Positions 7,735 through 38,322 are shown, numbered from the stretch's first letter. The stretch: DNA of 54,156 bases from a virus (IMGVR_UViG_3300005980_000003:1-54156), one strand, 5' to 3'. Numbers and translations: made by a program. Notes: generated from the letters alone by a model not told the origin.

Positions 7735-9624
7735 TTAGCAGAAGAAGTAGGCTTCTTTGTTGTAGATCATGTCGCTTGTCAGTTCACGACTAACCAAAGG
7801 CATGTCAATGTTCAACTGACTGCACAGATGTGCAATTGGATCATTCTCTACAAAGATGATTTCATATGCACGGCAGATCAAGGCTTTCAACTTAGGAGTA
7901 TCTTTCAAAGCTGTACGGAAACAGTCATGAATAGATACATAACCTTCGATGCCAGCATCTTTAGCCAATGCTGCTACAGTACGAGCAATAAGCGCATCAA
8001 TGCCCTGAATGTAGTTAACCATGAATGTACGAGCATATTCCTCAGCAGATGGAGCCTTGTCACTAACAGTCAAGCCAGTATTCTTCAATTGGCTACCAAA
8101 GCTGATGATAGTGTTTTGAGTGTAACGAATGCTGGTGAATGTAGCTGTAAGCTCAACCTTGCCACACACAACCAAGTCAACAATCTGACCATCAATGTGA
8201 GTGTAGACAACATTAGACTTACCATTTGCCTCCATGATTGCTGCAACCTGTTCTGCCATGTACTCTTGAAGACCAATGATCTTCTTACCAAGTACACGCT
8301 TAACAGCTTCGATAGTAATGTTGGCAGCTTCTTCACTGTCTTCAATACCAGCGTCAAACATAACCTTCATGTAATCCTTTTGTTCGGTAAGTGCTTTCTT
8401 GCCACCACCGTATTGGATAGCCATGTAGGGTGTTTTCATTGCGTTACGATCAATACCAGCCATGTCCATCTGAATGGCACAAAGTGCATACGGGTCAAAC
8501 ACCTTCTTCATAGTGAAGCCAGTAGCCTCAAGAAGTTGTTTGTTACCTGCCAAGATAGCCAGGATCTGAGTACCCGAACATTTAGCATCCAAGCCCATTG
8601 GTACACGAACATCACACTCGCCAGTCTCTTCAAAGGTAACGAAGTAACGAGCAAGGCGAACATACATGAAAGGACTATCAACACCAGCACTCTCAAGGAA
8701 TGTCTTCAATGCACGTACAGGCGACTTACCAACACGCATCAGATACTCAGTGGACATGTACTTTGGATCTTTGCCAGCAGCTTCCTCAAGCTCATTCATG
8801 AAGAATGTGTAAGCCTCGCTATCCTTGGTAACAATAGACTCAACATTCAACTTGTAGATGCTGCGGTTGTAGTCATCACCTTGTGGGTTAGTACCAGCAT
8901 GTGCAACGTGATACATACGACCACGCTTGTCAGCTTTCTGCTCACTGTAGTAGTCAACACCAGCTTCCATGTCATTGATGCCATTCATGCTACCTTTCAC
9001 ATCTTTCCAGATAGCCAGCTCTGGAGTCTGTGACTTAACAAGGTTGATGATAGTTGTCATATCCATGTCAGCGCTGAATGGTGTTGCTTCCAAGTAACGC
9101 ATTGCTTTGTCCAACAGCTTGGATGGCTTAACCTTGCCACCTTTAACCTGCGACACACGACGATTGGTATCATCGATCATAGTTGTCAGAGGCGCTGTCT
9201 TCTCACTTACATAGCAAGCATCATAGAACTTCTGACTAACATAGAACACACCACCAAGTTCTTCCATGAAGCCCATTGTTACCAAGCTTTCAAGTGCATC
9301 ATTACATTCAACCATAACACCCAAGTCACGATTGCGAGCAACCATGTAACCAAAGCACCCTTTATACTGAGTGTTAAAAGACTCAACAGTATGTACACCT
9401 TCCTCAAGCATGAACATTGTCTTGAACATAGACGCTGCTATCACTTGCTTGTTGGCGATGGTGCAGGTGCTGTACATGTCACGCAGCATGATGTCTGCAA
9501 ACAGTTGTGGGATAACGGATTCAGCGGTGAGTTGTTCGGACTTACGCATAGTGTGTTTGCTCATGTGGGTAGCGATGGTGTTAGGAGTAGTGTTGTTAGC
9601 AGTTACGTTAGTGATTGCGTTCAT
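7735..9624 (-). CDS. Single-subunit T7-superfamily RNA polymerase 1 (Chaseviridae early type)
   Basis: DKRGRMY, NPQGDD, motif A LDAKCSGTQ, motif B RNAMKTPYMAIQYGG, motif C IHDCF. Confidence 0.92.
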   Translation of the reverse strand: MNAITNVTANNTTPNTIATHMSKHTMRKSEQLTAESVIPQLFADIMLRDMYSTCTIANKQVIAASMFKTMFMLEEGVHTVESFNTQYKGCFGYMVARNRDLGVMVECNDALESLVTMGFMEELGGVFYVSQKFYDACYVSEKTAPLTTMIDDTNRRVSQVKGGKVKPSKLLDKAMRYLEATPFSADMDMTTIINLVKSQTPELAIWKDVKGSMNGINDMEAGVDYYSEQKADKRGRMYHVAHAGTNPQGDDYNRSIYKLNVESIVTKDSEAYTFFMNELEEAAGKDPKYMSTEYLMRVGKSPVRALKTFLESAGVDSPFMYVRLARYFVTFEETGECDVRVPMGLDAKCSGTQILAILAGNKQLLEATGFTMKKVFDPYALCAIQMDMAGIDRNAMKTPYMAIQYGGGKKALTEQKDYMKVMFDAGIEDSEEAANITIEAVKRVLGKKIIGLQEYMAEQVAAIMEANGKSNVVYTHIDGQIVDLVVCGKVELTATFTSIRYTQNTIISFGSQLKNTGLTVSDKAPSAEEYARTFMVNYIQGIDALIARTVAALAKDAGIEGYVSIHDCFRTALKDTPKLKALICRAYEIIFVENDPIAHLCSQLNIDMPLVSRELTSDMIYNKEAYFFC

Positions 9625-10025
9625 AATGTGTTCTCACATTAGGTAGATCATTAAGGTTGTGGTGCTATAGCAACAGTGAAGCGTCACGCTTATGTAATAG
9701 GCATGGTGTTTAGTTCCAAACGGCTAGGTTGAGGAAAAACGGTACTTGGAGCCTCCTTATTGTGCTGATGCCAGGCGCTTGCTCCATTTACAATAAAAAT
9801 TTGAAATCCGGGTTACAGACTTGTCCCGATACTTATTTCAAGGTTGTTAAAAAAAAATATTAAAATGTTGTTTCGAAAAGCTTTTGTATCAATATTGTTA
9901 AAAGCTCTTTTCTCAAAGCTTTTACAAAAATTCGCGACGACATATTCGTGAGGACTTGTCCGAACAATATAATCATCCGTGTCCATTCGTTATATGTTGT
10001 TTTTGTGTATAGGTCGGGGCTAACT

Positions 10026-10048
10026 CTTCACACCATTGCGGTGTGAAG
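10026..10048 (-). terminator. Hairpin at end of late/lysis operon
   Basis: CTTCACACC-GCAAT-GGTGTGAAG, 9-bp stem; no strong U-tract. Confidence 0.45.
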
Positions 10049-10118: not shown

Positions 10119-10307
10119 TTATGCCTGTGGAGCATCTGGAGCAGCAACGATATTCACGTCTTTCAGGATTAGGTGAATGGTGTCTGCGCTCAAACCCAGG
10201 GTGTTGTCAGTGCGAGCTTGCAGGGTAGTTACACCTGCTTTAACAATGCCCAGCAGCAGTTGGCTACCTAGTTGCAGAACGATCTTAGTCAAGAGTGATG
10301 CGAACAT
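10119..10307 (-). CDS. Small amphipathic lysis-region protein
   Basis: GGAG RBS; hydrophobic/amphipathic N-terminus; last gene of late operon. Confidence 0.6.
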   Translation of the reverse strand: MFASLLTKIVLQLGSQLLLGIVKAGVTTLQARTDNTLGLSADTIHLILKDVNIVAAPDAPQA

Positions 10308-10327
10308 AATTTGTTCTCCTATTTGTT

Positions 10328-10600
10328 TTAAGGGTGTGCTGCAAGGTATGCAGCGATAAGTGCATCAATAGTTGCAACTGTAACTGGTGCAGCGCCGTTA
10401 ATGGTTTCAACCTCTAAAGTCACTGTAGTTACATCAGTACAGCTCACAGAAGTGACCTCAACAAGCCCATTTGCATCTTCACAAACAGGGTTAATGAGGG
10501 TAGTTCTGACGTTAATACCGCCCTGCAAACCGATTAAATCGACTGGTAAAGCTGGATTTGCAGGTGGAAAATCACTGAATTTGGAGCCTACTGGCGTCAT
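10328..10600 (-). CDS. Hypothetical protein
   Basis: 90 aa, directly downstream of endolysin. Confidence 0.65.
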   Translation of the reverse strand: MTPVGSKFSDFPPANPALPVDLIGLQGGINVRTTLINPVCEDANGLVEVTSVSCTDVTTVTLEVETINGAAPVTVATIDALIAAYLAAHP

Positions 10601-10604
10601 TTAA

Positions 10605-11066
10605 CTATGCTGCTACAGCAACTGGAGCAGACAGATAAAGAGCCTTTTCACGCAAGCGACGGGCATTCAAACCCTCGCTATAAGTCAATTGACCGTTGAT
10701 TGTTACCTTGTTCCACATCTGAAATGCAGCAGCAGCATCACGGAAGTTACCCGCGTTGTGTTGGCGCAGCACTGTAGATGTTTGAAATGCGTAAACACCG
10801 ATGTTGAAAGTTAAACTCATGAAGGCGTCAAACTGGGCCTGTGTAGCAGCCCGCTTGAGGGCGCTGGAGACGGCCTTTTCAACACCCGCTACATGTGTGT
10901 CCCGCGCGGCGTCGGCCTGCTCCTGGGTCCACTCCAGCCCCTCCTTGATGTCCTCCCCCGTCTGGCCCCAGCCGATAGTCCAAACGCCCTTGATATCCTG
11001 GTAAGCCTTCAACTTACAGCCTTCCGACTTCTGAATTGCTTGCAAACCCTCTACAGATGTTTTCAT
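10605..11066 (-). CDS. Endolysin, GH24 phage lysozyme
   Basis: E-x8-D-x5-T triad (SEGCKLKAYQDIKGVWTIGWG); QAQFDAFMSLTFNIG; GLNARRLRE. Confidence 0.95.
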   Translation of the reverse strand: MKTSVEGLQAIQKSEGCKLKAYQDIKGVWTIGWGQTGEDIKEGLEWTQEQADAARDTHVAGVEKAVSSALKRAATQAQFDAFMSLTFNIGVYAFQTSTVLRQHNAGNFRDAAAAFQMWNKVTINGQLTYSEGLNARRLREKALYLSAPVAVAA

Positions 11067-11395
11067 TGTTTGTTCTCCCGCTTGTTAAGTATGCACTGCA
11101 CCTCGGCACAGTTATTCGTAGACTCTTTGATGAAGATTTTGATTGCCAACAAATTCACAGCCACACTTAAGGTTGTGACAATTGCAGCAAGAGGGTGAAT
11201 CACAATGTGATCCCCCTGGAAATACAAGATCATACTTTCAGCCAGATACAGAACACCGATAATAACTATCAGGATGGCTACACAGCGTGGACCTGAGTCA
11301 CAGTTGTCCATAGTTCTAATGGCTTGCACACCGGAGTACACACTGTATGCGAATGCCAGGAATACGAGTACCGCGATAATAGTGTGAGCTATCAC
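11063..11395 (-). CDS. Three-TM membrane protein (holin/antiholin-like)
   Basis: Three hydrophobic helices; adjacent to endolysin. Confidence 0.6.
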   Translation of the reverse strand: MIAHTIIAVLVFLAFAYSVYSGVQAIRTMDNCDSGPRCVAILIVIIGVLYLAESMILYFQGDHIVIHPLAAIVTTLSVAVNLLAIKIFIKESTNNCAEVQCILNKRENKQ

Positions 11396-11685
11396 TTGAT
11401 CACCTCCTGAGTCTTGCTTAAGAATTTACCCTCAAGAATATCCAACAGTGGTTGAGCAGTGAAGCCAACCATAAGAATGATGCCATCACGATATGCGACA
11501 TCAAGGGGAATAAACTTACCTACGGTGATGCCTGCGAACAATGCAATAGCAAGGTGTAGGAGAAAACGACCAAGGGAGAATGGTTCATCCCCTTTAAGTA
11601 ATCTGTGGCACTGCTTTGCAACAGCACCTGCAACAGCAAACAAACCTAACTGTAAAAGCTCTAGGAGTTTGTCATATGGGAACAT
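11392..11685 (-). CDS. Putative holin
   Basis: 97 aa, 2-3 TM segments, charged C-terminus; heads the lysis cassette. Confidence 0.7.
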   Translation of the reverse strand: MFPYDKLLELLQLGLFAVAGAVAKQCHRLLKGDEPFSLGRFLLHLAIALFAGITVGKFIPLDVAYRDGIILMVGFTAQPLLDILEGKFLSKTQEVIK

Positions 11686-11727
11686 AGAACCTCCTAATTT
11701 AACTCCTTACCCAAAGTAATTTAGTAT

Positions 11728-12309
11728 TTAAACAAGACAATTGGGTGTGGTTGGTCTTGAGGCAGCATCTGGAAACTTCGAATCCAATGGCCAACCCCGC
11801 AATGCATTTCGGTAAAGTTGTAGTTCTTTGTAGTCCGCACTTGAGATGGTGAGTGGCATATCCATTTCTATTTCATCCCTATGTCTAGCCACTAAACCAT
11901 CTGTAGCAGACAGTGCGCGATCCCTCCATGTGCGCTCCTTTACCTCTTGCTCATCTTTAGACAATGGTGCAGGTTTAGCTAAAAAAGGCACACCATTATC
12001 ATCGGAACTAATCAGCAGCCCCTGTCCTTGCCCCTCCAGTAACCCTAAGTAGGTTTCCTCACTGATAACCACAAGCTCATCTTCCGGTGGGAGTGTGCAT
12101 TGTGGGTTAGCTACGGATACCTTGTTTGGATATGCCAAGGGGTCGATAACTTTAATTTTTGGTTTTGTTGACACATCTGGGTCAGCACCCGGATCATCAA
12201 CTTCTATAAGTGGGGCAGTCCAAGTGGGGTCATCAACTTCTATAAACCTAGGTCCATGCATTCGGTCCATAAAAAACCCGCCAACCTTCTTGTGGTAGTA
12301 GATGCCCAT
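11728..12309 (-). CDS. Tail fibre assembly chaperone
   Basis: ERTWRDRAL..TDGLVARHRDE...YRNALRGWP..FP pattern typical of Pseudomonas Tfa proteins. Confidence 0.85.
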   Translation of the reverse strand: MGIYYHKKVGGFFMDRMHGPRFIEVDDPTWTAPLIEVDDPGADPDVSTKPKIKVIDPLAYPNKVSVANPQCTLPPEDELVVISEETYLGLLEGQGQGLLISSDDNGVPFLAKPAPLSKDEQEVKERTWRDRALSATDGLVARHRDEIEMDMPLTISSADYKELQLYRNALRGWPLDSKFPDAASRPTTPNCLV

Positions 12310-13119
12310 TTAGTAGCCCTCTGCTTCTATCATGATTGTTAATCCAGATTGCACCCATGCGTTCCACTCGTCAGCCCTAATGCCACACCCACTAACTGTT
12401 GGATTGAAATATGAGGCTGAAAGAGTTGCACTAGAGCCTGAACTCTGCAAAAGTGATATTTTCACTGTGTCAATCCTAGTTGGGAATACCATGGGCCACG
12501 TTACTGAACCAGTATAGTTAGTAGAAATGTCACCAAGGAACAAACTTACCTTCTGTCTAATTAACCCTGTGTCTGCGCACTTCCACCACCCTGGCACCCC
12601 TTGTTGACAGGTATTTCTAGGGAGTGCGGTATTAGACACAAGGAGAACTATGTTATTAGTACTCGACTGTCTGACATACGGCAATGATGGGTTGTTGCTA
12701 ACAAGTCCAACAGTCGAAACCCAATCTGCGTCAGTCTTATATGATAGTTGTGTGGCAGTGGCTAAACGGATAATGGCCGTAGAGTCAGATTGAAAATATG
12801 GGTAGGTAACATCCCCACTGGAAAAGCCTGCGGTAATAATGGCATCCCTGCCAACTCTTTTAGCTAGCTCAATTTGTGTCAAGGTTGAGACTGGTTTATC
12901 CATGTCGCTGGTGTTGTTTACATTTTGCAGGCCGATGGTAGCCCGATTTGCGGTGGCGTCAACATCATCAAGAAGCGACAAACCTTGATTTGTCACAACA
13001 CTGTTAACACCCTTAATTTTTTTGCCAGATGTACCATCGAATAAAACCAAGGCCCCATCTGTGATGGCTGCGGGGCCAACCACATCCCCCGTTGAAAGTA
13101 ATACCACTGGATCTGTCAT
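12310..13119 (-). CDS. Tail fibre protein
   Basis: GLQNVNNTSDMDKPVST repeat motif; GWWKCADTGLIRQ C-terminal fibre motif. Confidence 0.85.
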   Translation of the reverse strand: MTDPVVLLSTGDVVGPAAITDGALVLFDGTSGKKIKGVNSVVTNQGLSLLDDVDATANRATIGLQNVNNTSDMDKPVSTLTQIELAKRVGRDAIITAGFSSGDVTYPYFQSDSTAIIRLATATQLSYKTDADWVSTVGLVSNNPSLPYVRQSSTNNIVLLVSNTALPRNTCQQGVPGWWKCADTGLIRQKVSLFLGDISTNYTGSVTWPMVFPTRIDTVKISLLQSSGSSATLSASYFNPTVSGCGIRADEWNAWVQSGLTIMIEAEGY

Positions 13120-13129
13120 TAATACCCTC

Positions 13130-14551
13130 CTAAATGTTGGAGACTTGTTGGGAAGTCAAAGGTGAAAGCCAAACCCGGAAACTGTTTAAGTACCTGGCTC
13201 CGAATGGGTAGGTGGAATTACTAAACTCATAACTGGTATTTGGTATGGCATCTTGGGCAGAGTTAACTGTTGCCTTTAGTGCTCCATCCAAGTACACAAA
13301 AGTCTTGTTCAAACTTAAGTTTGACACAACAACAAACTTATGATTAATGGTGTGGTCCACTGGGGCTATCAGCACGCTGCTGGGTGTACCAGAAAGTACA
13401 GATCTGAAGTAGTAATTACCCGAGTTCAAAAGTATCGCAGGGGTATTTGTTCCTGGTGTATAGAATAGAGCCACATCAGTTGTGCTAGTTGATTGCACAT
13501 CCAGGCAGTATGTATAGTTTCTAGAGCCAGCCCCATTAAGTGCAGTTGGAAAACTAAGGGACTCTAAATCTACTTGGTTAGTTAAGAGCATGCCTAGTAC
13601 TGTGTATCTTGGGGTATTTAGTGGTGCGGTTTGTGTTGCCCCACTTTTATCCAAATATCCCCGGCTACTTGCTGGACCTATAAAGGTGGCTGAGCCGACA
13701 CCAGATAACAGTACTAAACTATTCCTGAAAGCAATCTCACAATCGGGGGAGGGTGGGACATAGTTAGACTCTGCTGCCTCCCTGGCTGCAATATAACTTG
13801 ACTCAATAAGTAAGTTACTTTTGACGCTGGAGTCGTCCACGTACACAGCTTTGTTGCTGCTATCTAACCCCAACTTCGCATTTGCACCTTGAGCGAGGAA
13901 TGTGCCGGCACTACCTGACAGTAATTGTGCTGCATAACTAGTGGCACCAATACCTGTACTAGCAAATAGGTGCTTAACCAGCCCTGTGTAGCTACCACCA
14001 GTGACAGGTACAGCCCCAGCTTGCATAGCGGTAACGTTGTGTACGTTGCCAGTAATGTTATTGGTGTGTGTATTCAGTGCGGTTTGTACTGTTGCCACTT
14101 TACTGTCTATCACTACTTTGCTGTAAGTGTTTAGAATATCCACAGTAAGTTGGTGGGGGTTTGAAGTGTTGGCAATGTGGTTAGACCAGTTAGCAACCGC
14201 CAAATCGTATTGCGCCCTGGAAATCTGTACAGAGGATTTATCCCACTGGGTAGAATTCAAACTGGGCCGTATAGCTACATTTGGGCTTGCTACCTTGGAT
14301 ACATATACGGAACCATCTGTCTCATCCCATACTATCGCAGCCAGCTTGTAGTCAAGGTCTCCACCCCACTCAAACACACCACGTTCAGCCAGTGACACAA
14401 TATTGGTGTCGTAGCGATTGTTGATGTAGTTAAGCATTTGATATACGGGGATTTCTGGAACCCACCCAAGTTTCCACTTCGCAGCCCCAGGGTCGATATT
14501 AGGACTAACAGGTGCAGCAGCCCACACCCTACCTAATTGCATTGCACTCAT
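13130..14551 (-). CDS. Tail fibre / baseplate-associated protein
   Basis: KWKLGWVPEIP fibre N-terminus; H..NTSNPH repeats; beta-rich C-terminus. Confidence 0.75.
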   Translation of the reverse strand: MSAMQLGRVWAAAPVSPNIDPGAAKWKLGWVPEIPVYQMLNYINNRYDTNIVSLAERGVFEWGGDLDYKLAAIVWDETDGSVYVSKVASPNVAIRPSLNSTQWDKSSVQISRAQYDLAVANWSNHIANTSNPHQLTVDILNTYSKVVIDSKVATVQTALNTHTNNITGNVHNVTAMQAGAVPVTGGSYTGLVKHLFASTGIGATSYAAQLLSGSAGTFLAQGANAKLGLDSSNKAVYVDDSSVKSNLLIESSYIAAREAAESNYVPPSPDCEIAFRNSLVLLSGVGSATFIGPASSRGYLDKSGATQTAPLNTPRYTVLGMLLTNQVDLESLSFPTALNGAGSRNYTYCLDVQSTSTTDVALFYTPGTNTPAILLNSGNYYFRSVLSGTPSSVLIAPVDHTINHKFVVVSNLSLNKTFVYLDGALKATVNSAQDAIPNTSYEFSNSTYPFGARYLNSFRVWLSPLTSQQVSNI

Positions 14552-14560
14552 AATCTCTCC

Positions 14561-15757
14561 TTAACGCGGAATACGAAGTTTCTGTCTTGGTGTAAGTCGT
14601 TGAGACCACACCCTAAAATTCTTTACATTGCCAGTAACACCAAAATAATAAGTAAGGTCGCTATTGGTAAATTGTACATCCGAGACCACTACCGCACCAT
14701 TCAATGTGTAAGATATGCAACCATCCCTGCATCCGAAAACCCCGGGGGCTGCAACTACTAGGGAAGTACCTGTCGCAAGTTTTAGTCCCAAGGTTTCAAA
14801 GGCTGGGGCATTAACAGCAGCAGTTTGTGCGACCAATCCCCTGTCGGTGTACGCCAAAGTTGTTGCCCGGTTTAGCGTCAATGTATTAGCAGTATTGCTT
14901 GCAAGTAGGTTTGTCATCAGTGGAAAATGTAAGTCTGGTTTGGGCATTACAAAGGATGGGTTATACCGCTGATTAACTGCGGGATAGCTAGCAGCAGTTA
15001 AGATGCCCTGCCACCTACCGCCCTTGTAATAATCCGCCACCCCAAGTCCAATTGCCCCAACCTTACTTCTGAATGAGACAAAGGTAGATGCATTGGTCAT
15101 AAGTTCGCAGTCTGTACCAATACTCAGGTTATCCAAGTAGTTTACTTGCCCTAGAAAACTTCCCCCAGTGGTTGGGATTGTGCCTATGCCTATTGCAGTA
15201 TCTAAGTGTGGATTATCCACCCTTGCTGCATGTGCTGACACTGCATCATTGACAAACTTAACCTGTGCATCAATTGTAGCTTTATAACTTCCACCAATAC
15301 TTGCGCTGGTTATGTCGTCATTATGGGAATTCTGCCCAGGGGTTGTATGCGTACCAAGTTTATTTTGCATGTCTGAAATTGTTGCAAGGTAATCCACAGC
15401 AGTGCTGAACTTCACTGGAGACCAGTTTAATGTTTGCGTGGTCGGCAACTTGTTATGATTTGTTGGGTATATAGAGACATAGGTGACACCCCCGTAAGTA
15501 GTGAGTGCCCCCAACTTATAATAAGCGTCTTCATCCCAGGGAAGTTTTCCGTACTGCGCCACACACTTAACTCTTGTCTCTCGTAAGTTAATTATGTAGT
15601 TTTCCCATTCCTCTGGCTCAGTTTCTGACTGCCACCCTCTTGCTGTTTTGCCCGGCCCACCCTCCCCGCTCGGGTGATTTACATCAACCTCTGGATCAAC
15701 CACAAATGCAGCAGGATCAGATGCCCAAACATTAGTGATGTCATTTCTGTTTGTCAT
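14561..15757 (-). CDS. Tail fibre / baseplate-associated protein (paralogous architecture to 13130-14551)
   Basis: VWA...GW..E...EW N-terminus; H...DNPH repeat. Confidence 0.75.
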   Translation of the reverse strand: MTNRNDITNVWASDPAAFVVDPEVDVNHPSGEGGPGKTARGWQSETEPEEWENYIINLRETRVKCVAQYGKLPWDEDAYYKLGALTTYGGVTYVSIYPTNHNKLPTTQTLNWSPVKFSTAVDYLATISDMQNKLGTHTTPGQNSHNDDITSASIGGSYKATIDAQVKFVNDAVSAHAARVDNPHLDTAIGIGTIPTTGGSFLGQVNYLDNLSIGTDCELMTNASTFVSFRSKVGAIGLGVADYYKGGRWQGILTAASYPAVNQRYNPSFVMPKPDLHFPLMTNLLASNTANTLTLNRATTLAYTDRGLVAQTAAVNAPAFETLGLKLATGTSLVVAAPGVFGCRDGCISYTLNGAVVVSDVQFTNSDLTYYFGVTGNVKNFRVWSQRLTPRQKLRIPR

Positions 15758-15773
15758 TTACCACACCCTCAGT

Positions 15774-16454
15774 TTAAGATCTAATAACAATAGCCCCATG
15801 GTTGTCCCTAAGAGTCATTGATGTACAAATAGGCCGAACACCATCGATCATCAACCCGATAGATATACGTTGCAGTTGGGTGAGGTCTTCATGAATAAAA
15901 ATATCAACATGAAGACTGCCCTCCTTAATTTCGGTGTCGCAATTAAAACCAATGATCAAATCAATGTACAACAGAACATCTTCAATGCAGCAGTTGGTCA
16001 TGTTCTTAATGATCTTGGCGTAAATAGCTTTCTTGTAAGTTAAGTCATCCATAACATAGTCAGCAGAATCCCTGTCTGTTACCGACTTGTAGATTCCACC
16101 AATGGTTGGGGAGGAAATATCCCCAATAGATGGGGTTGCAGATTGTGGGTCATCATAGAAACCAAAGTATCCTAGGGATGCGGCACCGTAAAAGATGCGC
16201 CCAATACCTACAATCTCCCCAATCACATCCAACTGTTTACCTTTGGCATCTGACAAGTACCGAAGGTTTATAGAATCCTCAATTGCCTTGTTTACAATAT
16301 CCACTTCCTGCAAAAAGCAATTGATATACGCAGAAAGGTTTGGAGAACTCTTGTATTGCATCAGCAATAAGGATTGCAACTTTTCAGAGGGAATTGCAAA
16401 TTGAACTGTTGGTGCAGGTTGTAGAGGTACATAGTCAGCGCTGCTATACGACAT
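15774..16454 (-). CDS. Baseplate wedge protein, DUF2612
   Basis: AKGKQLDVIGEIVGIGR...YFGF; follows baseplate J. Confidence 0.85.
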   Translation of the reverse strand: MSYSSADYVPLQPAPTVQFAIPSEKLQSLLLMQYKSSPNLSAYINCFLQEVDIVNKAIEDSINLRYLSDAKGKQLDVIGEIVGIGRIFYGAASLGYFGFYDDPQSATPSIGDISSPTIGGIYKSVTDRDSADYVMDDLTYKKAIYAKIIKNMTNCCIEDVLLYIDLIIGFNCDTEIKEGSLHVDIFIHEDLTQLQRISIGLMIDGVRPICTSMTLRDNHGAIVIRS

Positions 16455-17945: not shown

Positions 17946-17953
17946 AAGCCTCC

Positions 17954-27788: not shown

Positions 27789-27806
27789 ATGGTAATGTCT
27801 CCTTTG

Positions 27807-29208: not shown

Positions 29209-29223
29209 TTATGATCCTCCTAC

Positions 29224-29706: not shown

Positions 29707-29733
29707 GTTGGTTCTCCTTAAAATTTGGGCAAT

Positions 29734-29758
29734 AAAAAGCCCCACATATAGTGAGGCT
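29734..29758 (-). terminator. Rho-independent terminator after major capsid gene
   Basis: GCCTCAC-TATAT-GTGGGGC followed by TTTTT on minus strand. Confidence 0.8.
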
Positions 29759-29776
29759 CTTAAGTAACGCTATTTG

Positions 29777-30787: not shown

Positions 30788-30814
30788 AATTCAAATCTCC
30801 TTTATTAATTATAA

Positions 30815-31303
30815 TTAAACAGCGGTGCCATTGATCATTGCTACGGTGATATCCACCCCAACAACTTCACCAGCGGCCGCAGAAGCTTTGAACTTCATGT
30901 TCGACGCTTTGACATAACCAGCAGTGGCAGCAGAAGTAACCTGGCCAGTAGTGGTATTAACGTATACAGCGCCATCAAACAGGCACGAGGCAACCGTAAC
31001 AACGTTGATTGGACCTTCCAACAGGACTGGAAGCATTGCACCCAGTGCATAAGGAGCTGCGCCAGTGTTTGGACGGAAGTCACTTTCAGTGGTCATTTGA
31101 CGGATAACAACACCGAACTGTTGACCGGCACCGGCACTACCCAAATCAACTTCACGGTCGCCAGTGTGCTTTACAATTTTGCCAGCAGTAATGCCTGCAA
31201 CTTTTGCACGGAAGCTTTCACGCTTGGCGTTGGTGTAGTTCAGGCCGATGATAGTGCCTTCCTGGGCGCCTGGGATGTTGATGCTGTAGTTTTGAACTGG
31301 CAT
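30815..31303 (-). CDS. Head decoration / cement protein
   Basis: Between protease and MCP; AGGAG RBS before MPVQNY. Confidence 0.75.
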   Translation of the reverse strand: MPVQNYSINIPGAQEGTIIGLNYTNAKRESFRAKVAGITAGKIVKHTGDREVDLGSAGAGQQFGVVIRQMTTESDFRPNTGAAPYALGAMLPVLLEGPINVVTVASCLFDGAVYVNTTTGQVTSAATAGYVKASNMKFKASAAAGEVVGVDITVAMINGTAV

Positions 31304-31304
31304 A

Positions 31305-32444
31305 TTAAATAGCTCCTTCATTTCGTTTGATCATTGCTTCCCGAGCGGATTCATTCTTTGCTGGGGTTGCTGCTGGTTTCACATCCTTACCTGCAACGTC
31401 TCGCAAGACTTGCGTTAGGTCTGTGGATTCATCTTTCACAAAATCCTTATCTTCAAGGAGAATGCCGTATCGGACTTCAACATATTGGTCGGACATAGAA
31501 GTAGGGGCAGACGGGCATACCTTAGTAACCACTGCGCGCATTACTTCCAATTTAGTCAAACCTTTTACATCAACATCTGCAAGCTTGAGTGCCTGGCTAA
31601 CAAACTCCATGCGTTCTTCAACAAGTGCATCAATGTCTTTAAGCTTCTCGCCAATTGCTACAGCGTCGGCAAGTTTTGCAGTGACATCATCCAACTTCGC
31701 TTTCAGTGTTTCCACTTCTGCAACCAAAGCAGCGTCTGCTACTTTAATCTCGACAACAGCATCAGCGACCTTGGCCACTTCAATTACTGGTGCGATAACT
31801 GGGACATCATCAATTACTTCTTCTTCCACATCTGCACTGTCAGCAATAGCTGCTGTACCAGCTCGGCCCTTAGGCACGATTGCAAAGTGGTTAATACGGA
31901 TGTTGGTCTTTTTGGCGTGGTAGCCAACAGTAGCTTCGTCGCACAGAACCAAAGTGGCATTGTGACCGCTGGACAGTTGGTTAACATTAGCTCTAACCAA
32001 TGCAATAGCATCTGCATCATTAAGCACCATAGTGCCGATTAGTTCTTCGCCTGCCTCATCCTTGCAAGGCACACCTTCAAGCATACCTTTTACCAACTCT
32101 TTGGCATTTTCAGTATCAACATCATCTTTTGGATGGCCGATAGTGAAAGGTGCCGAACGGGCAGAGTTAATAGCTGCCTCATCAAACAAGTCTTCTGGCA
32201 AAGTCATTACCTTGATAATGGCTTCTGGATCATGGTCTTTAAACTGTGCACCCAAATCCTTTGCCTTGTACTCCATGATGCCAGTACGTGCGAGAGTACA
32301 AGGAGCAATCATTTGACCACTCGTCTTGAACTTGCGCTTTGTAGGCATGTGCAACTTGTCTTGCAGGTTTACAACTGTGTCTTCATCGTGGAACCGAACA
32401 GCCAATGCTGCCACTGCCAGGCCCAACGTATTTTTCAAACGCAT
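31305..32444 (-). CDS. Prohead protease/scaffold, DUF2213
   Basis: ARTGIMEY, PFTIGHP, QLSSG, NHFAIVPKGRAG; coiled-coil C-terminus. Confidence 0.9.
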   Translation of the reverse strand: MRLKNTLGLAVAALAVRFHDEDTVVNLQDKLHMPTKRKFKTSGQMIAPCTLARTGIMEYKAKDLGAQFKDHDPEAIIKVMTLPEDLFDEAAINSARSAPFTIGHPKDDVDTENAKELVKGMLEGVPCKDEAGEELIGTMVLNDADAIALVRANVNQLSSGHNATLVLCDEATVGYHAKKTNIRINHFAIVPKGRAGTAAIADSADVEEEVIDDVPVIAPVIEVAKVADAVVEIKVADAALVAEVETLKAKLDDVTAKLADAVAIGEKLKDIDALVEERMEFVSQALKLADVDVKGLTKLEVMRAVVTKVCPSAPTSMSDQYVEVRYGILLEDKDFVKDESTDLTQVLRDVAGKDVKPAATPAKNESAREAMIKRNEGAI

Positions 32445-33806
32445 TTATTTCTCCTTCTTATCGTCAGGCCCATCTGATGGACGTGAAATCTTGGCTGCTC
32501 CAGGTGGTGGTGCTATGGGAACTTCACCCATGTCTTCTTTCGAATAAACATTTTTGGTGTACAGAATCCGTTGTGCAGCCTCGGCAGTTAGAACACCTAC
32601 TGCAACTAGAGCCACGACATTCGCAACAGTGTCCTTGTCTTTAGCTTCTTTCTGTGCAGCAGATTCAGGGAAGATGCATCGCCACTTATACTTACACTCT
32701 GGCAAACCAAAGTGAGCTTGGATAATGGCGTCAAGGATTTTGAGTTTTGGCTCGTACTCCATCTTTTGAATAGCAGCAAGCAAGTCAACGTAGTTAACAA
32801 GGTCACTCTCACCTGTAGCATTCATGCCGCTTGGTGATGCAGACAAGAAGCGAGTGGCTGGAATACCTACACCAGCAGCAACTACTTCCAAGTACTCCCA
32901 AATCAAATCCTTTACACCAGACAGTTGAACTTTCTTGGTGGAGTAGACTTCATTGGCATCAAGCAGAATTACGTTGTAAATCGACTTCATCTGTTTCATC
33001 AGACGGAATCGTTTCATAACAGCCTTCTCCCCCGCAGGGTTGGTAAGCATGTTCTGCAAACCATTGATCGTAATTACATCAGTGTTAGCCTCTACAACAA
33101 GATGTGCAGCAGCCTGAACAGCAGTATGGAAATTATCAATCAACTTATTCAGTGGCAGTAACACACTGTCTGAATACCATTGGTTATGCCAGTTCTCATA
33201 CATAGGAAGGCGTGTACCTTCAAACCTAATCAAACGGGAGTAGTGAATCTTGGCAGTGCTGCCAGCAATCATGTAATGCTCAGGTTGCCCATAGCATGGT
33301 GACAGTGGGTCCATGTTGATCATGCCACTGCCCATCAACCTTGTACGGTCAATAACTTGAAGACTGTTGATGCAATTCACCTTCAACCGTTTAAGGTCTA
33401 GTGGTGTATCCATCTTGCCGGAACTTTTGATGTCCAGCAGAATTGCAGAAGTGCCAAACACCCTCGCCCACTTGTATGCTTCATTAAACAAGCCTGAAAC
33501 ATTGAAGTAGTCGTCCGCATCTTGTGCATCCTCTGTTTCCAACTCTCGCCATTGACGGGTTGTATCCAGTGGGATGATGGTGCAAATCTTTTGTGCAATC
33601 CAATCTTCACGGAAGCGGGTAATCAAACCATCTTGGTCGCTATTGCCACCACTACGATTCCACTGGTTGTAGGTGGTCTTATCACCAGCACCACCCATAC
33701 CTGAAACTACGTTTTCCAAACCATCTTGTGCCTTAATCGCTGTTGCAGCATCTACGATTAATTTTTCAGCGAGTTGTTCTAAAGTCAGGTTTTCTTCTTC
33801 ATTCAT
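32445..33806 (-). CDS. Portal protein, DUF1073
   Basis: DGLENVVSGMG, IHYSRLIRF, IPATRFL..SPSGMNATGESDL.NY. Confidence 0.9.
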   Translation of the reverse strand: MNEEENLTLEQLAEKLIVDAATAIKAQDGLENVVSGMGGAGDKTTYNQWNRSGGNSDQDGLITRFREDWIAQKICTIIPLDTTRQWRELETEDAQDADDYFNVSGLFNEAYKWARVFGTSAILLDIKSSGKMDTPLDLKRLKVNCINSLQVIDRTRLMGSGMINMDPLSPCYGQPEHYMIAGSTAKIHYSRLIRFEGTRLPMYENWHNQWYSDSVLLPLNKLIDNFHTAVQAAAHLVVEANTDVITINGLQNMLTNPAGEKAVMKRFRLMKQMKSIYNVILLDANEVYSTKKVQLSGVKDLIWEYLEVVAAGVGIPATRFLSASPSGMNATGESDLVNYVDLLAAIQKMEYEPKLKILDAIIQAHFGLPECKYKWRCIFPESAAQKEAKDKDTVANVVALVAVGVLTAEAAQRILYTKNVYSKEDMGEVPIAPPPGAAKISRPSDGPDDKKEK

Positions 33807-33988
33807 AGATCATCCTTCTTGCTAGAGTAGCCATTGGGTTTTTCCAAGTGGTACTCAGGCAGTGTGGATACTTGTAGCTCTACTCGATCACTCACAGTTT
33901 CAATTGTGGCGATGATGTTGCCAGCGCTATCTTTGATATGAAAAAGGTTATTGCCCGATGCTTTCTTGCACAGACGTGTGCTGATCAT
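33803..33988 (-). CDS. Hypothetical protein
   Basis: GGAG RBS; between terminase and portal. Confidence 0.65.
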   Translation of the reverse strand: MISTRLCKKASGNNLFHIKDSAGNIIATIETVSDRVELQVSTLPEYHLEKPNGYSSKKDDL

Positions 33989-33999
33989 GACAGTACTCC

Positions 34000-36006
34000 T
34001 TAATTAACCCAGTTTTCATAGTTGGCCGAACTTCCACTGTATTCGATGGCAACTGCATCACTCACGTTATCAACAACGTCATCATGTCCAGTTGAACTAC
34101 CTAAGCCAGTCATGCCCAAGACTTCACGCATAACGTGTGCCTTATGTACATGCTCACTTGGAAACCATAATCTACCTTGTGCAAAGTAAGGGATTGTGTT
34201 GAGGAAGCGAGCCACCTTGTCCCCGGAAGTTTTATCCTTCGGCACAGGCAACACTCTTACATCCCCATCACGTGTAAATTGTTGGTTCAAGAATTGACCA
34301 GAACTCTTGTCCTCCATATACAAGGCCGTAGGCAGCATGCATGGATAAGACAGGTCCAACTTGTTGTGCTTATTCCAGAACTTAATAAGCTCTATCTTAA
34401 GCTCAGGTGTTTCCCATTTACCCAGCACAACATCTGCTAGGTACATATCTCTATTCCTCATCACTGCCCACAAACAAACCACAGAGTAATCTGAGTAGGT
34501 CTGCGCAGTAGATGCTGTATCCGCTGTCATGAATGAGCGAACAACCTGGGACTTATCAAGTTCTAAGTATTCCTGCCACCATGCTTCTTGAACAAGTCCT
34601 GTACCTTGTGCAGTTGGATCACCCATGTACTGACTGTTGAATGTATATGGGGAGGCTTTCTTCATTGCATCCAGTGACTCCAAACTCTTACGAGACGGCC
34701 ACAATGCAGTGCGAGCTTCTTTACGATGCAACTTAAACAGCACAGGCTTGGCGTGTGTATACGCTTGTTTCTCAATGAGTTTGTCGTACCACTCTTTAGA
34801 GCCCACACCTTCTTCAATCACTGCTGGGATGTTCAACCAGTCGTAACTGTCACTTGAGTTACCCCGTAGCAGATAGCCAACGAGGTCTTCGTCATGCACA
34901 CGTTGCATAATGATAGCCATAGGTGTACGAGAACATTTAACCTCGTTACCATCGTCATCATTAACTACACCGTCATTTGCAAGACGTGACATAAATGTAT
35001 TGTCGTATCGGTCATTAATCTCGGAGCGAACTGTATTAGAGTAAGCATCCTTTGGCTTAATGATGTCGTCTACAACAAAGCAACCTGAATAAGCGGTAGT
35101 CAAACTACCAGCACCCTTCCCGGTCAACTTACCACCAGATGGAACTGCGTGAAGCACGCCACCTTTAGTAGTACCCCAACGTTCAAGCGAGCGCTTACTT
35201 GCATCAATCTTCAATGCAGGAAACACTTTCATGAATAGTTCGTTGAGCATGATGGTACGGATGTAACCACTACTTTCTGATACAACGTCATCGGCATAAG
35301 AAGTAATGATGTTATGTGAACCTGGGTTGTGGCAGAAGCTATACAGCGGTAGAAAGATACTGAGAATCTGTGTTTTGGAATGGCGGGGAGGGATCGTTAC
35401 AATTACCCGATCCCTCTTACCATCCACAATATCCTGACACACTTCGAAAATAACATTATGAAAGTCCTGCATCTGGAATTTGAATCCCATCTGCAACTCA
35501 AATGCCCACTTACTGAATGTAGCAAAGCTAGCGACAAGTATCTCCCTTGCCTCGGTACAATCTTCGTTAGTAAGTTCTTCAAGATTTACTTCCAGCGGAT
35601 TGTTAATAATGGCCATCGCCAAAGAAAGTTTCTTCTTGGCTTTGTTAACAACAGTTACCTCACCATTACTATCTAACTCAACTTTACCCTCTGTAATTAA
35701 TTTCTTAATCTCAGAGCTATATACAGTGTTGTTTTTATGGTCAGCATTTCTAAACGCTTCCAATTGAGCATCTTGCAAAGCTTTGATTACAGCATTGTTC
35801 TCTAAGCCCTGACCTTCAATCTCACTTGTAATAGACTTTTGGTATTGCTCAATAATAAAGTCATTTTCTGAAATGTATAAGCGTAGTTGCGGGAGTGTCT
35901 GTGTAATGCCCCTTGATCTACTAACCTTCAACAAATCACCGTAATGTTGAGTCAGTTGGTTAACAATGTAGTTATCAACCTGCTCATCAATCGGTAATGC
36001 AGCCAT
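34000..36006 (-). CDS. terL: Terminase large subunit with ~150-aa N-terminal extension
   Basis: Walker A IPPRHSKT, Walker B VVDD, QRVH, nuclease ADTA...HDDVVD. Confidence 0.93.
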   Translation of the reverse strand: MAALPIDEQVDNYIVNQLTQHYGDLLKVSRSRGITQTLPQLRLYISENDFIIEQYQKSITSEIEGQGLENNAVIKALQDAQLEAFRNADHKNNTVYSSEIKKLITEGKVELDSNGEVTVVNKAKKKLSLAMAIINNPLEVNLEELTNEDCTEAREILVASFATFSKWAFELQMGFKFQMQDFHNVIFEVCQDIVDGKRDRVIVTIPPRHSKTQILSIFLPLYSFCHNPGSHNIITSYADDVVSESSGYIRTIMLNELFMKVFPALKIDASKRSLERWGTTKGGVLHAVPSGGKLTGKGAGSLTTAYSGCFVVDDIIKPKDAYSNTVRSEINDRYDNTFMSRLANDGVVNDDDGNEVKCSRTPMAIIMQRVHDEDLVGYLLRGNSSDSYDWLNIPAVIEEGVGSKEWYDKLIEKQAYTHAKPVLFKLHRKEARTALWPSRKSLESLDAMKKASPYTFNSQYMGDPTAQGTGLVQEAWWQEYLELDKSQVVRSFMTADTASTAQTYSDYSVVCLWAVMRNRDMYLADVVLGKWETPELKIELIKFWNKHNKLDLSYPCMLPTALYMEDKSSGQFLNQQFTRDGDVRVLPVPKDKTSGDKVARFLNTIPYFAQGRLWFPSEHVHKAHVMREVLGMTGLGSSTGHDDVVDNVSDAVAIEYSGSSANYENWVN

Positions 36007-36284
36007 TAAAACTTATCCTCATCCGCTACAGGTTGCAGCATATAAAGGAAGTTAAATCGCTCGGTAGTCATTCTTTGTGGAATGAGGTCTTGCAACTCCT
36101 TACAAATTGCCATCCATTCACCTTCTGTTGGTGCAGCGAAAGAAATACTGATGTTGATTTTCTTATCTACAACTTCATCTTCATCAACCTCGTAATACAC
36201 TTCGTCACACAGAGGGCAAGCCCCTGCAACTAGATCAACGTAGTGATCACAACTTCTGCATTTGGTTCTGCAATCATTGCTCAT
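36006..36284 (-). CDS. Hypothetical Zn-ribbon protein
   Basis: CRSC and CPLC motifs; AGGAG RBS. Confidence 0.65.
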   Translation of the reverse strand: MSNDCRTKCRSCDHYVDLVAGACPLCDEVYYEVDEDEVVDKKINISISFAAPTEGEWMAICKELQDLIPQRMTTERFNFLYMLQPVADEDKF

Positions 36285-36537
36285 GTGGTTTCTCCTAACT
36301 CATTAGTTGTTACCTCTCAGGGAGGTAGTTATGTGGTGGAACATTTTAGTTAACAAGAATTGTCAAACCTTTTAGTAAAAGAGAAAGCATCCCCCAGCCC
36401 CTTAGAGGCCAGTGGAAATTTCTTTATATTTAAATTGAGTGCGTTCTTATTCTTCTATGGTGGGTAGCTGGAGGCCACGGTTTATATGGCCTGTAGCCAA
36501 ACCGCTTTTGCCAATATGCCCAAAAGTTTGCAAACTT

Positions 36538-38322
36538 TTACAGGAAAAATCTGTCGCACTTGTGAATGATGTTCAAATCCCAATCACCCATTGCAGGTTC
36601 ATCAGGCAAATCCACCTTGTACTTGTACTCCCATTGACGCTTTAGATCTAACAGGTAGTTACCAAAGTACAACTTTACGAATTCTTCTCGGATTACTTTG
36701 TCGAGAAATGGGATGTAGTTTGCATGAACAGCAAAGCTATCGTGTACCCACACAGCAGGAAGCCCGACTTCCTTCAAACGAATAGCCACCATCCGAAGAT
36801 GTGTTGCATCTAGCGAGTGAATTACATTAGGACCAATTGCAGATTTGTGCTTTGAAAGCTTGGGGATGAATGCACCTTCTTCATCCAAGACATCCTTTTT
36901 GATAGTGATCGTGTGCTTGCGCCGCTTAATCACCACTGTAACGTCTTCTTCCTCAGTTACTCGGTAATCCTGACTGGCTACAAATCCGTCTGGAGTCTCC
37001 CATGAAACTTGGTGAACACCAGTAGCACAGATAATTGCCATGCACGCCTTCAACCAATCCACACCTGCAACGATGGGTTGTAGAACCTCGTTCGTGGTGT
37101 TGAACAATTGAGAGCCAAGCTGGCAAGCAACCTTTCTATCAAGCTCAGGATGCATGTCACAGACATTATCCATTGCCGATATGCGAGTTGCAGAATACGC
37201 AAAAGTCATTACTGGCTTCTTTGCACCCTTACGTGTAGCAATGTATTTGTATTCTTCTGGTAAGTAGTAGTCCCACTTGAAGGCCACAAACTCGTAAATA
37301 TCCATGCCGTCAGCGGACTCGCACAACTCCATCCCTAAGCGGTCTGTGATCGCACTGGACCCCATCAGGGCGCTCCAATGCTGTAGGCCGGAACATCGCC
37401 CATCCCTGGGAACGAACGCTGCCAGGGGCTGCTCAGGGGCTTTCAGGTGTTCGGCTATCAGCCTGGCATTTGCCATTCCGCAGTAGGGTTTATCCCACTG
37501 TAGCCACTCCAAATTCTCCCAATCTAGAGCCTGTGCCGCATACAGGCAGGCTTTAGCCTCAGTGTCTGCACCGTCATAGCGGGTGTCCTCTGCGTAGTCG
37601 TCAGTAGCCGCCACAAGGGCAGCCAGCCCAGCCGGTGACAGGGCTTCGCTGAAAATAGGAAGACACATTGCTTTCTCATGGTCAGCACCTTGCGGGCTAA
37701 TACCAATAGTTGTGTCTGCGTAAATCCTCCCACGACTATCCAAGAAGCAACCAAACTTGAAGCTGTTTTCATCAACAAGTTGTTCCGCACATTTCACAGC
37801 CCTGCTAGCCATGATGCTGTCATTATAAGGAGCGGTTTCTTTATACAGGTTAAGTACAAACGGATTCACACGAAACTTTGTATCAGCTATCCCACTGGTT
37901 GCTTCTAAATGTGAACACTGCTCGATGCCGTAGCGTACTTTTGCATCAGGCACGTCAAAGCCTTCCCTGACAACATGCGTTAAAATAGGCGGCAAGCCAC
38001 CCTTAACCATCATGCTAACAAGGTCGTAAGTTGGTTCAACGATCACATGTGTTTCTGTTCTACTTACACGTATGTGCTCAAGGGTAAGTAATTTTGCACC
38101 CACCATCGCCATTATAAAGCACAAGCCTATGTACGGATCAGTGTGTAGATACTGGGCGAGATAGTTACGTTTATTGTACTTACTCCCCGGATTGCACAAT
38201 GCAACATAAAGCTTGGGGATGCAGTCAACGTATACTTGTGCAGATTGGCGGTATGGTGGTGCCAGTTTTGGTATTAACCTTCTTGTGACAGAAAGTTCAA
38301 ACGATTCTTCTTGGGCCACCAA
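36538..38322 (-). CDS. Single-subunit T7-superfamily RNA polymerase 2
   Basis: LDSRGRIY, SPQGAD, motif A DGRCSGLQH, motif B RKGAKKPVMTFAY, PNVIHSLDATHL, motif C VHDSF. Confidence 0.92.
   Translation of the reverse strand: MVAQEESFELSVTRRLIPKLAPPYRQSAQVYVDCIPKLYVALCNPGSKYNKRNYLAQYLHTDPYIGLCFIMAMVGAKLLTLEHIRVSRTETHVIVEPTYDLVSMMVKGGLPPILTHVVREGFDVPDAKVRYGIEQCSHLEATSGIADTKFRVNPFVLNLYKETAPYNDSIMASRAVKCAEQLVDENSFKFGCFLDSRGRIYADTTIGISPQGADHEKAMCLPIFSEALSPAGLAALVAATDDYAEDTRYDGADTEAKACLYAAQALDWENLEWLQWDKPYCGMANARLIAEHLKAPEQPLAAFVPRDGRCSGLQHWSALMGSSAITDRLGMELCESADGMDIYEFVAFKWDYYLPEEYKYIATRKGAKKPVMTFAYSATRISAMDNVCDMHPELDRKVACQLGSQLFNTTNEVLQPIVAGVDWLKACMAIICATGVHQVSWETPDGFVASQDYRVTEEEDVTVVIKRRKHTITIKKDVLDEEGAFIPKLSKHKSAIGPNVIHSLDATHLRMVAIRLKEVGLPAVWVHDSFAVHANYIPFLDKVIREEFVKLYFGNYLLDLKRQWEYKYKVDLPDEPAMGDWDLNIIHKCDRFFL

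Follow-up and report, generated by a model that had tools for sequence, protein, structure and literature searches.

The virus record IMGVR_UViG_3300005980_000003, 54,156 bases long and analysed here over its whole length (the window), carries on its minus strand the genes of two compact single-subunit RNA polymerases (RNAPs), designated RNAP1 (629 amino acids, aa) and RNAP2 (594 aa). By sequence and structural modelling, both are intact polymerases of the T7 family and apparently active. Among the genomes compared, this two-RNAP arrangement is common to a lineage of uncultured phages and absent from every cultured relative examined. RNAP1 and RNAP2 may differ in promoter specificity and act in succession during infection.

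Two divergent RNA polymerases encoded in one phage genome

The RNAP1 gene (7735..9624, minus strand) begins with ATG. Its product matched the Pfam family PF00940 with 26.1 bits (cut-off 22) and the PHROG family phrog_414, annotated as 'RNA polymerase', with 180 bits (E 1.6e-52), and it contains the motif strings DAKCSGTQ and HDCF. A tblastn search of 50,697 phage records returned 222 records, the best matches being RNAPs of Chaseviridae at 36–40% identity; relative to the RNAPs of phages phiEcoM-GJ1 (GJ1), Y2 and PM1, the identity was 37–40% over 80–85% of the length. Residues D346, R393, K397, Y405, H566 and D567 were invariant in an alignment of 36 RNAP1-family sequences. The AlphaFold (AF2) model of RNAP1 (predicted local distance difference test, pLDDT, 87.8; predicted template modelling score, pTM, 0.82) could be superimposed on T7 RNAP (8dh5_M) with Z 37.1 and a root-mean-square deviation (rmsd) of 5.5 over 489 aligned residues (Foldseek E 5.6e-19). 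The homologous gene is gp01 in GJ1, Y2 and PM1. Judged by these relationships, RNAP1 is an ordinary, compact Chaseviridae polymerase.

The second polymerase, RNAP2 (36538..38322, minus strand), has 594 aa when translated from TTG, or 593 aa when translation begins one codon later at GTG; its database representatives have 593 aa. RNAP2 scored 163.9 bits against PF00940 (same cut-off of 22) and E 1.5e-71 against phrog_414, the RNAP2-family profile matched T7 RNAP chains with E 3e-41, and mitochondrial RNAPs matched RNAP2 as strongly as T7 RNAP did. The motif strings DGRCSGLQH and HDSF are present, and D307, R364, K368, Y376, H527 and D528 were invariant in the 36-sequence alignment of this family. 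The AF2 model (pLDDT 91.3, pTM 0.88) was aligned with T7 RNAP 8dh5_M over 458 residues (Z 38.2, rmsd 2.7) and with the T7 promoter complex 1cez_A over 578 residues (2–594 against 47–883; Z 30.8, rmsd 3.6).

The tblastn search of the same phage records revealed no close relative of RNAP2, as all 2,559 matching records stayed below 60% identity, and the best 40 of these 2,559 were Autographiviridae RNAPs at 23.5–31.1% identity. A megablast search with the RNAP1 and RNAP2 gene regions against the phage collection gave no match. In a metagenome protein collection, 57 RNAP2 clusters were found at 35–100% identity, almost all about 600 aa long and many originating from contigs of 51–58 kb; next in order came 16 T7-like proteins of about 800 aa, two of them shorter. 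IMG/VR contributed 38 RNAP2 loci (35–99% identity). A profile scan of representative bacterial genomes detected one weak partial match, covering 62 residues in Sphingobium, and otherwise none. As seen from these collections, RNAP2 belongs to a family of its own, with members of about 600 aa that are documented in metagenomes only.

In the Pelagibacter phage HTVC025P (MH598799, Autographiviridae), the RNA polymerase is split, being annotated as gp09 and a 558-aa gp12 that are separated by two small open reading frames (ORFs), and is of the T7 type. The idea that an N-terminal part of RNAP2 is likewise encoded by a separate gene was rejected, since the alignment of the RNAP2 model with T7 RNAP begins at residue 2 and the ORFs adjoining RNAP2, of 58 and 67 aa, differ from one near relative to another.

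RNAP1 and RNAP2 were 22% identical over 438 aligned columns (E 1e-8). In a 16-sequence alignment of the two window RNAPs with those of T7, phiKMV and relatives, D421/R423/R425, D537, R627/K631/Y639 and H811/D812 (T7 numbering) were kept in 16 of 16 sequences, both window proteins included; in T7 RNAP these correspond to the T/DxxGR motif, the motif A Asp, the motif B Arg/Lys/Tyr and the motif C His-Asp. The catalytic residues were invariant in both 36-sequence family alignments as well. A first-pass annotation of this DNA had reported the two genes with coordinates, lengths and motif strings that all proved correct. Its description of enzymes that keep their catalytic motifs and differ strongly from each other agrees with the retention of every catalytic residue checked, with the low identity and with the placement of RNAP2 in another clade than RNAP1.

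According to the alignment, the N-terminal domain comprises about 147 residues in RNAP2 and 180 in RNAP1 versus 325 in T7 RNAP, and the thumb about 38–42 residues in the two window enzymes (about 38 in RNAP2) versus 86. Both possess a specificity-loop segment (36 and 41 residues, differing in sequence; 32 in T7), no residue of either aligns to the AT-rich recognition loop of T7 RNAP, and the intercalating-hairpin segment has 15 residues in RNAP2 and 7 in RNAP1, all three comparisons being drawn from the alignment alone. The models of both enzymes align to T7 RNAP from about residue 34–47 to the C-terminus with Z 37–38, and to N4 RNAPII and mini-vRNAP with Z 19–21. The N-terminal domain and thumb are trimmed in the same way in classical chaseviruses with a single RNAP, so compactness alone does not call for cofactors. 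The suggestion of the first-pass annotation that such minimal enzymes may need cofactors was thus not supported, as the specificity loops are present, the models span nearly the whole of T7 RNAP, the RNAPs of single-RNAP chaseviruses are equally short and no cofactor gene was identified.

At the position of T7 His784, the His is kept in RNAP2 (H502) and in all Autographiviridae rows of the alignment, and Gln replaces it in RNAP1 (Q540) and all seven Chaseviridae-type rows, which makes it a family-wide difference in the active site.

Distribution, phylogeny and age of the pairing

The number of RNAPs per genome was determined on whole records with phrog_414, which detects both types strongly. 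All ten cultured chaseviruses (GJ1, Y2, PM1, phiA050, Farigoule, pAh6-C, VPs20, LA93P1, ZPAH14 and BUCT696) had one RNAP type, double matches in these records being two parts of one ORF or one gene repeated in the terminal repeat. One RNAP ORF was found in each of 13 near-complete classical-type IMG/VR records, several of which may be the same genomes as the cultured phages. The records with RNAP2 that are at least 96% complete (52.5–59 kb) also hold an RNAP1-type ORF in eight cases out of eight, with RNAP2 diverging down to 36–41% identity among them. A 67%-complete record likewise contains RNAP2 and an RNAP1-type ORF, and a 60%-complete fragment RNAP2 only. Independent contigs from several studies carry RNAP2 with contiguous flanks. 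A second RNAP is therefore not standard in the family; the first-pass annotation had considered that some chaseviruses might already be known to have two. [quoted passage not shown]

Phylogenetic trees were constructed with FastTree (76 rows) and with a quick IQ-TREE run under LG+G4 (38 rows). In both of them, RNAP1-type proteins grouped with the RNAPs of classical chaseviruses and the RNAP2 family with Autographiviridae-type RNAPs, with a support of 99 on each side. The RNAP2 family was monophyletic (support 100) with a long stem branch of 1.49. Forcing RNAP1, the chasevirus RNAPs and RNAP2 together changed the log-likelihood by -21.8 units (approximately unbiased, AU, test p 0.025). By these trees, RNAP2 is not a recent copy of RNAP1.

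The two-RNAP genomes belong to at least two lineages, one with the window, G006, G001 and metagenome proteins, and a distant one with G002–G005 and G007–G009. The RNAP1 and RNAP2 subtrees sort the genomes into the same two groupings, and this agreement of the gene trees points to an old pairing. Compared with the window proteins by tblastn, the large terminase subunit (TerL) was 62% identical in GJ1 and 40–46% in the distant lineage, the major head protein 60% and 41–43%, and the DNA polymerase 47% and 34–40%, which places the window nearer to GJ1 than to the distant two-RNAP lineage by these proteins. RNAP2 (39–41% identity in the distant lineage) has diverged to a similar degree as TerL and the head protein. 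Because the distant lineage holds RNAP2 at the same position while the closer GJ1 is devoid of it, the simplest reading would be an old two-polymerase state, with RNAP2 lost toward the classical Chaseviridae. An old transfer of RNAP2 between lineages is a possible alternative to loss.

Genome organization and the position of the RNAP2 gene

The window represents an entire IMG/VR virus record, classed as 'linear' and rated 100 for completeness by CheckV; the start of the record is circularly arbitrary and does not fix the true ends of the genome. The long ORFs are all encoded on the minus strand. When 72 ORFs were annotated with PHROG, the gene order proved to be that of GJ1, including a contractile-tail module with sheath, tube, baseplate and tape-measure genes. 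The ICTV profile, in the part available, describes Chaseviridae as phages with double-stranded DNA genomes of 52–56 kb, a myovirus structural module, genes on one strand and a single-subunit RNAP. The window corresponds to this in its size, structural module, minus-strand genes and an RNAP1 homologous to the family RNAP. Its TerL is 63–66% identical to TerLs of Chaseviridae (pAh6-C, VPs20 and Erwinia Y2-like phages), and in trees of the RNAPs, its clade is sister to or stands beside classical Chaseviridae (supports 93–95). On this genomic evidence, the window is the complete genome of an uncultured, contractile-tailed phage related to Chaseviridae. A PHROG scan of the window found no third polymerase among the other 72 ORFs of at least 50 aa, including the ORF of 1302 aa.

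In minus-strand order, RNAP1 is followed by an ORF-poor stretch and small ORFs, the DNA-metabolism genes, RNAP2, a gap of 253 nucleotides (nt) and the late block. The early region of small ORFs runs from 7734 to 1 and resumes at 54156–51000. The early position assigned to RNAP1 in the first-pass annotation is that of the family, based on synteny with gp01 of GJ1, Y2 and PM1, and the location of RNAP2 between nucleotide-metabolism genes and terminase is also accurate, with ribonucleotide reductase (38727–40607) on one side and the large terminase gene (34000–36006) on the other. The middle block (38323..50844, minus strand) encodes primase/helicase, DNA polymerase, exonuclease, HNH protein, ligase, dNMP (deoxynucleoside monophosphate) kinase, MazG and ribonucleotide reductase (50844–38727), followed by two small ORFs, and has RNAP2 as its last gene. 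The last three genes up to RNAP2 are separated by gaps of 14, 9 and 0 nt; as RNAP2 abuts the DNA-metabolism genes, it is most likely expressed together with them.

The late block (10119..36284, minus strand) extends over about 26 kb and comprises a 92-aa Cys-rich ORF and genes for the large terminase, portal, protease, major head protein, sheath, tube, tape measure, baseplate, fibres and lysis. It contains just four gaps of 25 nt or more, the longest of 42 nt. The 253 nt between RNAP2 and this block (36285–36537) form the only gap above 42 nt between 38712 and 10119.

Conserved non-coding elements downstream of the two genes

The region downstream of RNAP1 contains boxes with the core GATTAGCTCG on the minus strand. 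Box 1 (7572..7593), a candidate RNAP1 promoter, lies about 150 nt downstream of the RNAP1 stop codon, Box 2 (6942..6966) in the ORF-poor region downstream of RNAP1, and Box 3 (911..935) in the early region of small genes. The extended box pattern occurred in three sense-strand copies and no antisense copy; all three are confined to the early region, and the middle and late regions are free of it. The GATTAGCTCG core was also found about 135 nt after RNAP1 in two relatives (L081 and L082, RNAP1 74–75% identical) within otherwise diverged sequence, and the boxes resemble nine 'putative phage promoters' annotated in GJ1, with a consensus of about AACATTAGTTGGATGTGA. A consensus scan of positions 1–11000 for sigma-70 promoters and terminators gave 7 promoter-like matches versus 21 in shuffled sequence. 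None of the 7 was situated upstream of RNAP1, and the scan thus did not reveal a host promoter for this gene.

Two of the three boxes, together with several TTGAATC repeats, lie within an ORF-poor stretch of 879 nt immediately downstream of RNAP1 (6856–7734, minus strand). A 720-nt part of this stretch (7575 to 6856), folded as RNA, gave a better structure than 20 of 20 shuffles (z -3.3). GJ1 likewise has an ORF-poor stretch and two annotated promoter boxes after its RNAP gene.

A repeat termed D6 (450–470, 4109–4129 and 5796–5816, minus strand) was considered as a promoter and rejected, as inspection by eye revealed a shared peptide motif, P-E/K-G-A-T-H-F, near the starts of small ORFs; this suggests paralogous early proteins and not a DNA signal. 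In G003 and G002, terminal and tandem repeats overwhelmed a motif search, which was dropped. The 14-mer GGGATAATACGCCA occurs in two exact copies (81–94 and 53989–54002, plus strand) near the record ends, about 260 nt apart if the genome is circular; the pair is within chance expectation for three-mismatch matches.

The non-coding junction after RNAP2 (36285..36537, minus strand), a candidate terminator and late control region, is conserved in the relatives L003 and L004 and partly in G001. The block right after the RNAP2 stop codon (36505..36538) is almost unchanged in L003 (RNAP2 83% identical) and recognizable in G001 (RNAP2 49% identical). Two structures were predicted downstream of it on the same strand: a hairpin at 36467–36498 and a terminator-like hairpin (36377..36415), the stem of which is present in the minimum free energy and centroid structures and which is followed by a G-tract and a U-rich run. 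The G-tract/TTTC motif has one copy in the window and was found after RNAP2 in 7 of 35 junctions. Searched against Rfam, the window gave no match at gathering thresholds, nor did the L012 junction at E values of up to 1.

In the distant lineage, a conserved core lies 41–124 nt past the RNAP2 stop codon in 17 of 35 junctions. It consists of G(T/C)TAC(T/C)ACC(C/T)CG, about eight AT-rich bases ending in TTA and a purine run such as GGGAGAG, and in most of these junctions the motif GCTAATGGTAAG is located upstream of it. The core is single-copy in G002, G003 and G005, and G008 has one extra loose match. It is part of a hairpin whose outer stem changes in sequence yet stays paired (13 sequences, 15 pairs). 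Standard pairs accounted for 81.7% of cells versus 63.9% in shuffles, and double changes numbered 44 versus 17.2, values not reached in any of 500 shuffles; the covariation score was 0.58 versus at most 0.33 for slid partners. The AT-rich stretch with GGGAGA(G) resembles the start of a T7 class III promoter. Instead of acting as a promoter, the hairpin could also serve in termination or processing, or as part of an origin. In every genome looked at, the element is placed directly upstream of terminase and the late genes.

A possible succession of polymerases and its alternatives

The explanation ranked first is that the phage possesses two active single-subunit RNAPs of different promoter specificities used in succession, from the host enzyme to RNAP1 and from RNAP1 to RNAP2, a cascade put forward in the first-pass annotation that fits the gene layout; given the sequences and models at hand, we see the chances of its being right as about equal to those of its being wrong. 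The host RNA polymerase would produce RNAP1, the usual first gene of the family. RNAP1 would then transcribe the early and DNA-metabolism genes from GJ1-like promoters, with RNAP2 being made last in that block. RNAP2 would start at the control element in the 253-nt junction just downstream of its own gene and go on to transcribe the 26-kb late block, which covers packaging, virion and lysis functions. The presence of a conserved non-coding element of a different kind after each polymerase gene and the position of RNAP2 at the boundary between DNA-metabolism and late genes support such a temporal division of labour; the assignment of each polymerase to its element, and the timing, we infer from genomic context.

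Several observations weigh against this succession. The number of boxes is small, and 8 of 100 shuffles reached the count observed for the 10-nt core with one mismatch. Neither a repeat search nor an intergenic search for 18-mers with up to four mismatches turned up a promoter motif present in multiple copies in the window. Taken as a whole, the junction has an unexceptional fold (z -1.44), the junction of the window is conserved among closer relatives only, and the window itself lacks the covarying hairpin core. Both trees come from quick or FastTree runs and contain long branches, and the group subjected to the AU test was chosen once the tree was known. Late-gene expression in classical chaseviruses proceeds with a single RNAP and GJ1 has an annotated promoter box in its late region, so transcription of the late genes could still fall to RNAP1 or the host enzyme. 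The sole RNA-library run with the phage contains it as assembled contigs, one of them a single contig of 35 kb, which more likely represents carried-over DNA.

A bolder version combines two claims: that the two-RNAP state was ancestral to the whole chasevirus-like assemblage, with RNAP2 lost secondarily in the classical Chaseviridae, and that RNAP2 is a dedicated late polymerase acting at a single promoter per genome within the covarying hairpin, a structure-assisted promoter like that of the N4 virion RNAP (vRNAP). We hold this combination to be rather doubtful. If true, one compact enzyme and one site would switch on the 26-kb late block, providing a minimal orthogonal polymerase/promoter pair.

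All other explanations were ranked below the host–RNAP1–RNAP2 succession. RNAP2 might serve mainly DNA replication, starting transcription beside its own gene to prime synthesis or open an origin. Such a role is played by T7 RNAP at the primary origin, which lies just downstream of gene 1, and by mitochondrial RNAP at its own origins. The match of mitochondrial RNAPs to RNAP2, as good as that of T7 RNAP, the location of RNAP2 as the last gene of the DNA-metabolism block, and the RNAP2-associated element, essentially single-copy per genome with a hairpin and an AT-rich stretch, are in line with such a role. The same element, however, stands directly upstream of terminase and the late genes, where a late promoter fits at least as well, and classical chaseviruses replicate without RNAP2. 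A mainly replicative function seems unlikely, and the two roles of RNAP2, in late transcription and in replication, could coexist.

We likewise find it improbable that the two enzymes are redundant or alternative, sharing their targets, with the second serving as insurance against host defences or inhibitors or for use in other hosts or conditions. Classical relatives manage on RNAP1 alone and the promoter assignments are candidates only, as redundancy would allow. However, both genes are kept in all eight near-complete genomes despite RNAP2 identities falling to 36–41%, their trees match, the specificity loops differ in sequence, and the conserved elements after the two genes are different.

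The order might also be reversed, with RNAP2 made late, packaged and injected to read the first genes, and RNAP1 acting afterwards. N4 vRNAP, an injected polymerase of the T7 family, is a precedent, and RNAP2 adjoins the packaging/structural module. Yet its gene lies upstream of the junction, abutting the DNA-metabolism genes and not the late block, it codes for a bare 594-aa enzyme whose model aligns end to end with T7 RNAP and leaves no room for packaging or ejection domains, and no junction element of the post-RNAP2 type was seen in the early region; we judge a reversed order highly improbable. That one RNAP is a catalytically dead relic or a mis-assembly artefact, as the low Pfam score of RNAP1 (26 bits) and a Pseudomonas brenneri assembly with just a 223-aa RNAP2 fragment might hint, is scarcely credible, since both families keep all catalytic residues, working-family chasevirus RNAPs share the low Pfam score (phrog_414 giving 180 bits), and RNAP2 occurs with contiguous flanks on independent contigs from several studies.

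Comparison with known systems

RNAP1 is similar in size to the RNAPs of Chaseviridae (GJ1 gp01, 648 aa; Y2 gp01, 631 aa), with the same trimmed N-terminal domain and thumb and the same Gln at T7 H784. Its gene likewise precedes the early genes, and the major head protein of the window is 60% identical to that of GJ1. The difference is that cultured and classical-type IMG/VR members have one polymerase, whereas the window adds RNAP2. The ICTV profile, as far as it was accessible, mentions 'a' virus-encoded RNA polymerase of T7 type, with promoters still unidentified.

RNAP2 groups with Autographiviridae RNAPs (T7 gp1, 883 aa; phiKMV gp26, 816 aa) and keeps H784. As in phiKMV, its gene is located just before the structural genes; this position and the length of T7 RNAP had been given correctly in the first-pass annotation. 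In LIMEzero and T7, a phage promoter is annotated right after the RNAP gene, and RNAP2 is followed by a conserved non-coding element. In contrast to these enzymes, with which it shares 23–31% identity, RNAP2 is about 290 aa shorter than T7 RNAP and is encoded in a myophage genome that already holds another RNAP.

N4-like phages (Schitoviridae) also have two T7-family polymerases in one phage, the virion RNAP and RNAPII (gp15 and gp16). The two N4 polymerases act in succession, and the late N4 genes are transcribed by host RNAP. Unlike N4, the window encodes neither a giant virion polymerase nor a split two-subunit enzyme, its RNAP-family matches being single ORFs of 594 and 629 aa, and the N4 enzymes are no nearer to either of its RNAPs than T7 RNAP is.

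The accessible part of a report on uncultured marine Autographiviridae (Commun Biol 2025, PMC12361551) describes 23 AG-10.1 and 17 AG-14 phages in which the typical RNAP is accompanied by a further, compact one of about 650 aa. The extra gene of AG-14 lies between the modules for DNA metabolism and structure, as that of RNAP2 does, and its authors suggest a division of labour among the RNAPs (PMC12361551). Compared by their description only, these phages are of the podovirus type with a main RNAP of about 800 aa, whereas the window has a contractile tail and two compact RNAPs, none of about 800 aa. The precedents of N4-like phages and AG-10.1/AG-14 lower the novelty of the arrangement in the window, which in turn means that an extra RNAP is not confined to marine podoviruses of Autographiviridae.

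A lineage that splits the work between two compact RNAPs would provide a natural experiment on how temporal gene classes are divided, and it raises the testable question of whether cultured Chaseviridae lost a late polymerase. RNAP1 and RNAP2 (629 and 594 aa), together with their candidate cognate sites, could become orthogonal expression tools.

Host, occurrence and neighbouring variable genes

RNAP1 homologues with 95% and 86% identity are annotated in assemblies of P. brenneri and P. laurylsulfatiphila, respectively, and the presence of the RNAP genes in these assemblies indicates that the host is probably a Pseudomonas. A 6.26-Mb contig of P. brenneri encodes a 632-aa RNAP1 homologue (QDY63_14840) and the 223-aa RNAP2 fragment (QDY63_14690), with locus tags 150 apart. 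The classical-type record G011 is classed by IMG/VR as a provirus. Chaseviridae are described as lytic, so the P. brenneri contig and G011, as possible integrated or chromosome-assembled copies, are noteworthy. DNA nearly identical to the window was found in metagenome runs from soil, peat, wastewater, plant, aquatic and oil-field samples belonging to 15 studies; four of the runs, all stored as assembled contigs and thus uninformative on transcript ends or levels, were inspected, and the habitats are not relied on.

The first late ORF (36006–36284, minus strand) overlaps the start of the terminase gene and encodes a protein of 92 aa with CxxxC...CxxC and another CxxC, resembling a zinc ribbon, for which PHROG gave no match. 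At the same spot, G001 has a different Cys-rich ORF of 64 aa, and the distant lineage instead encodes a protein of 147–164 aa. On the other side of the junction, the small ORFs between ribonucleotide reductase and RNAP2 (38332–38528) are swapped for other sequence in contigs of near relatives that are 95–97% identical elsewhere, which makes this a variable spot directly upstream of RNAP2.

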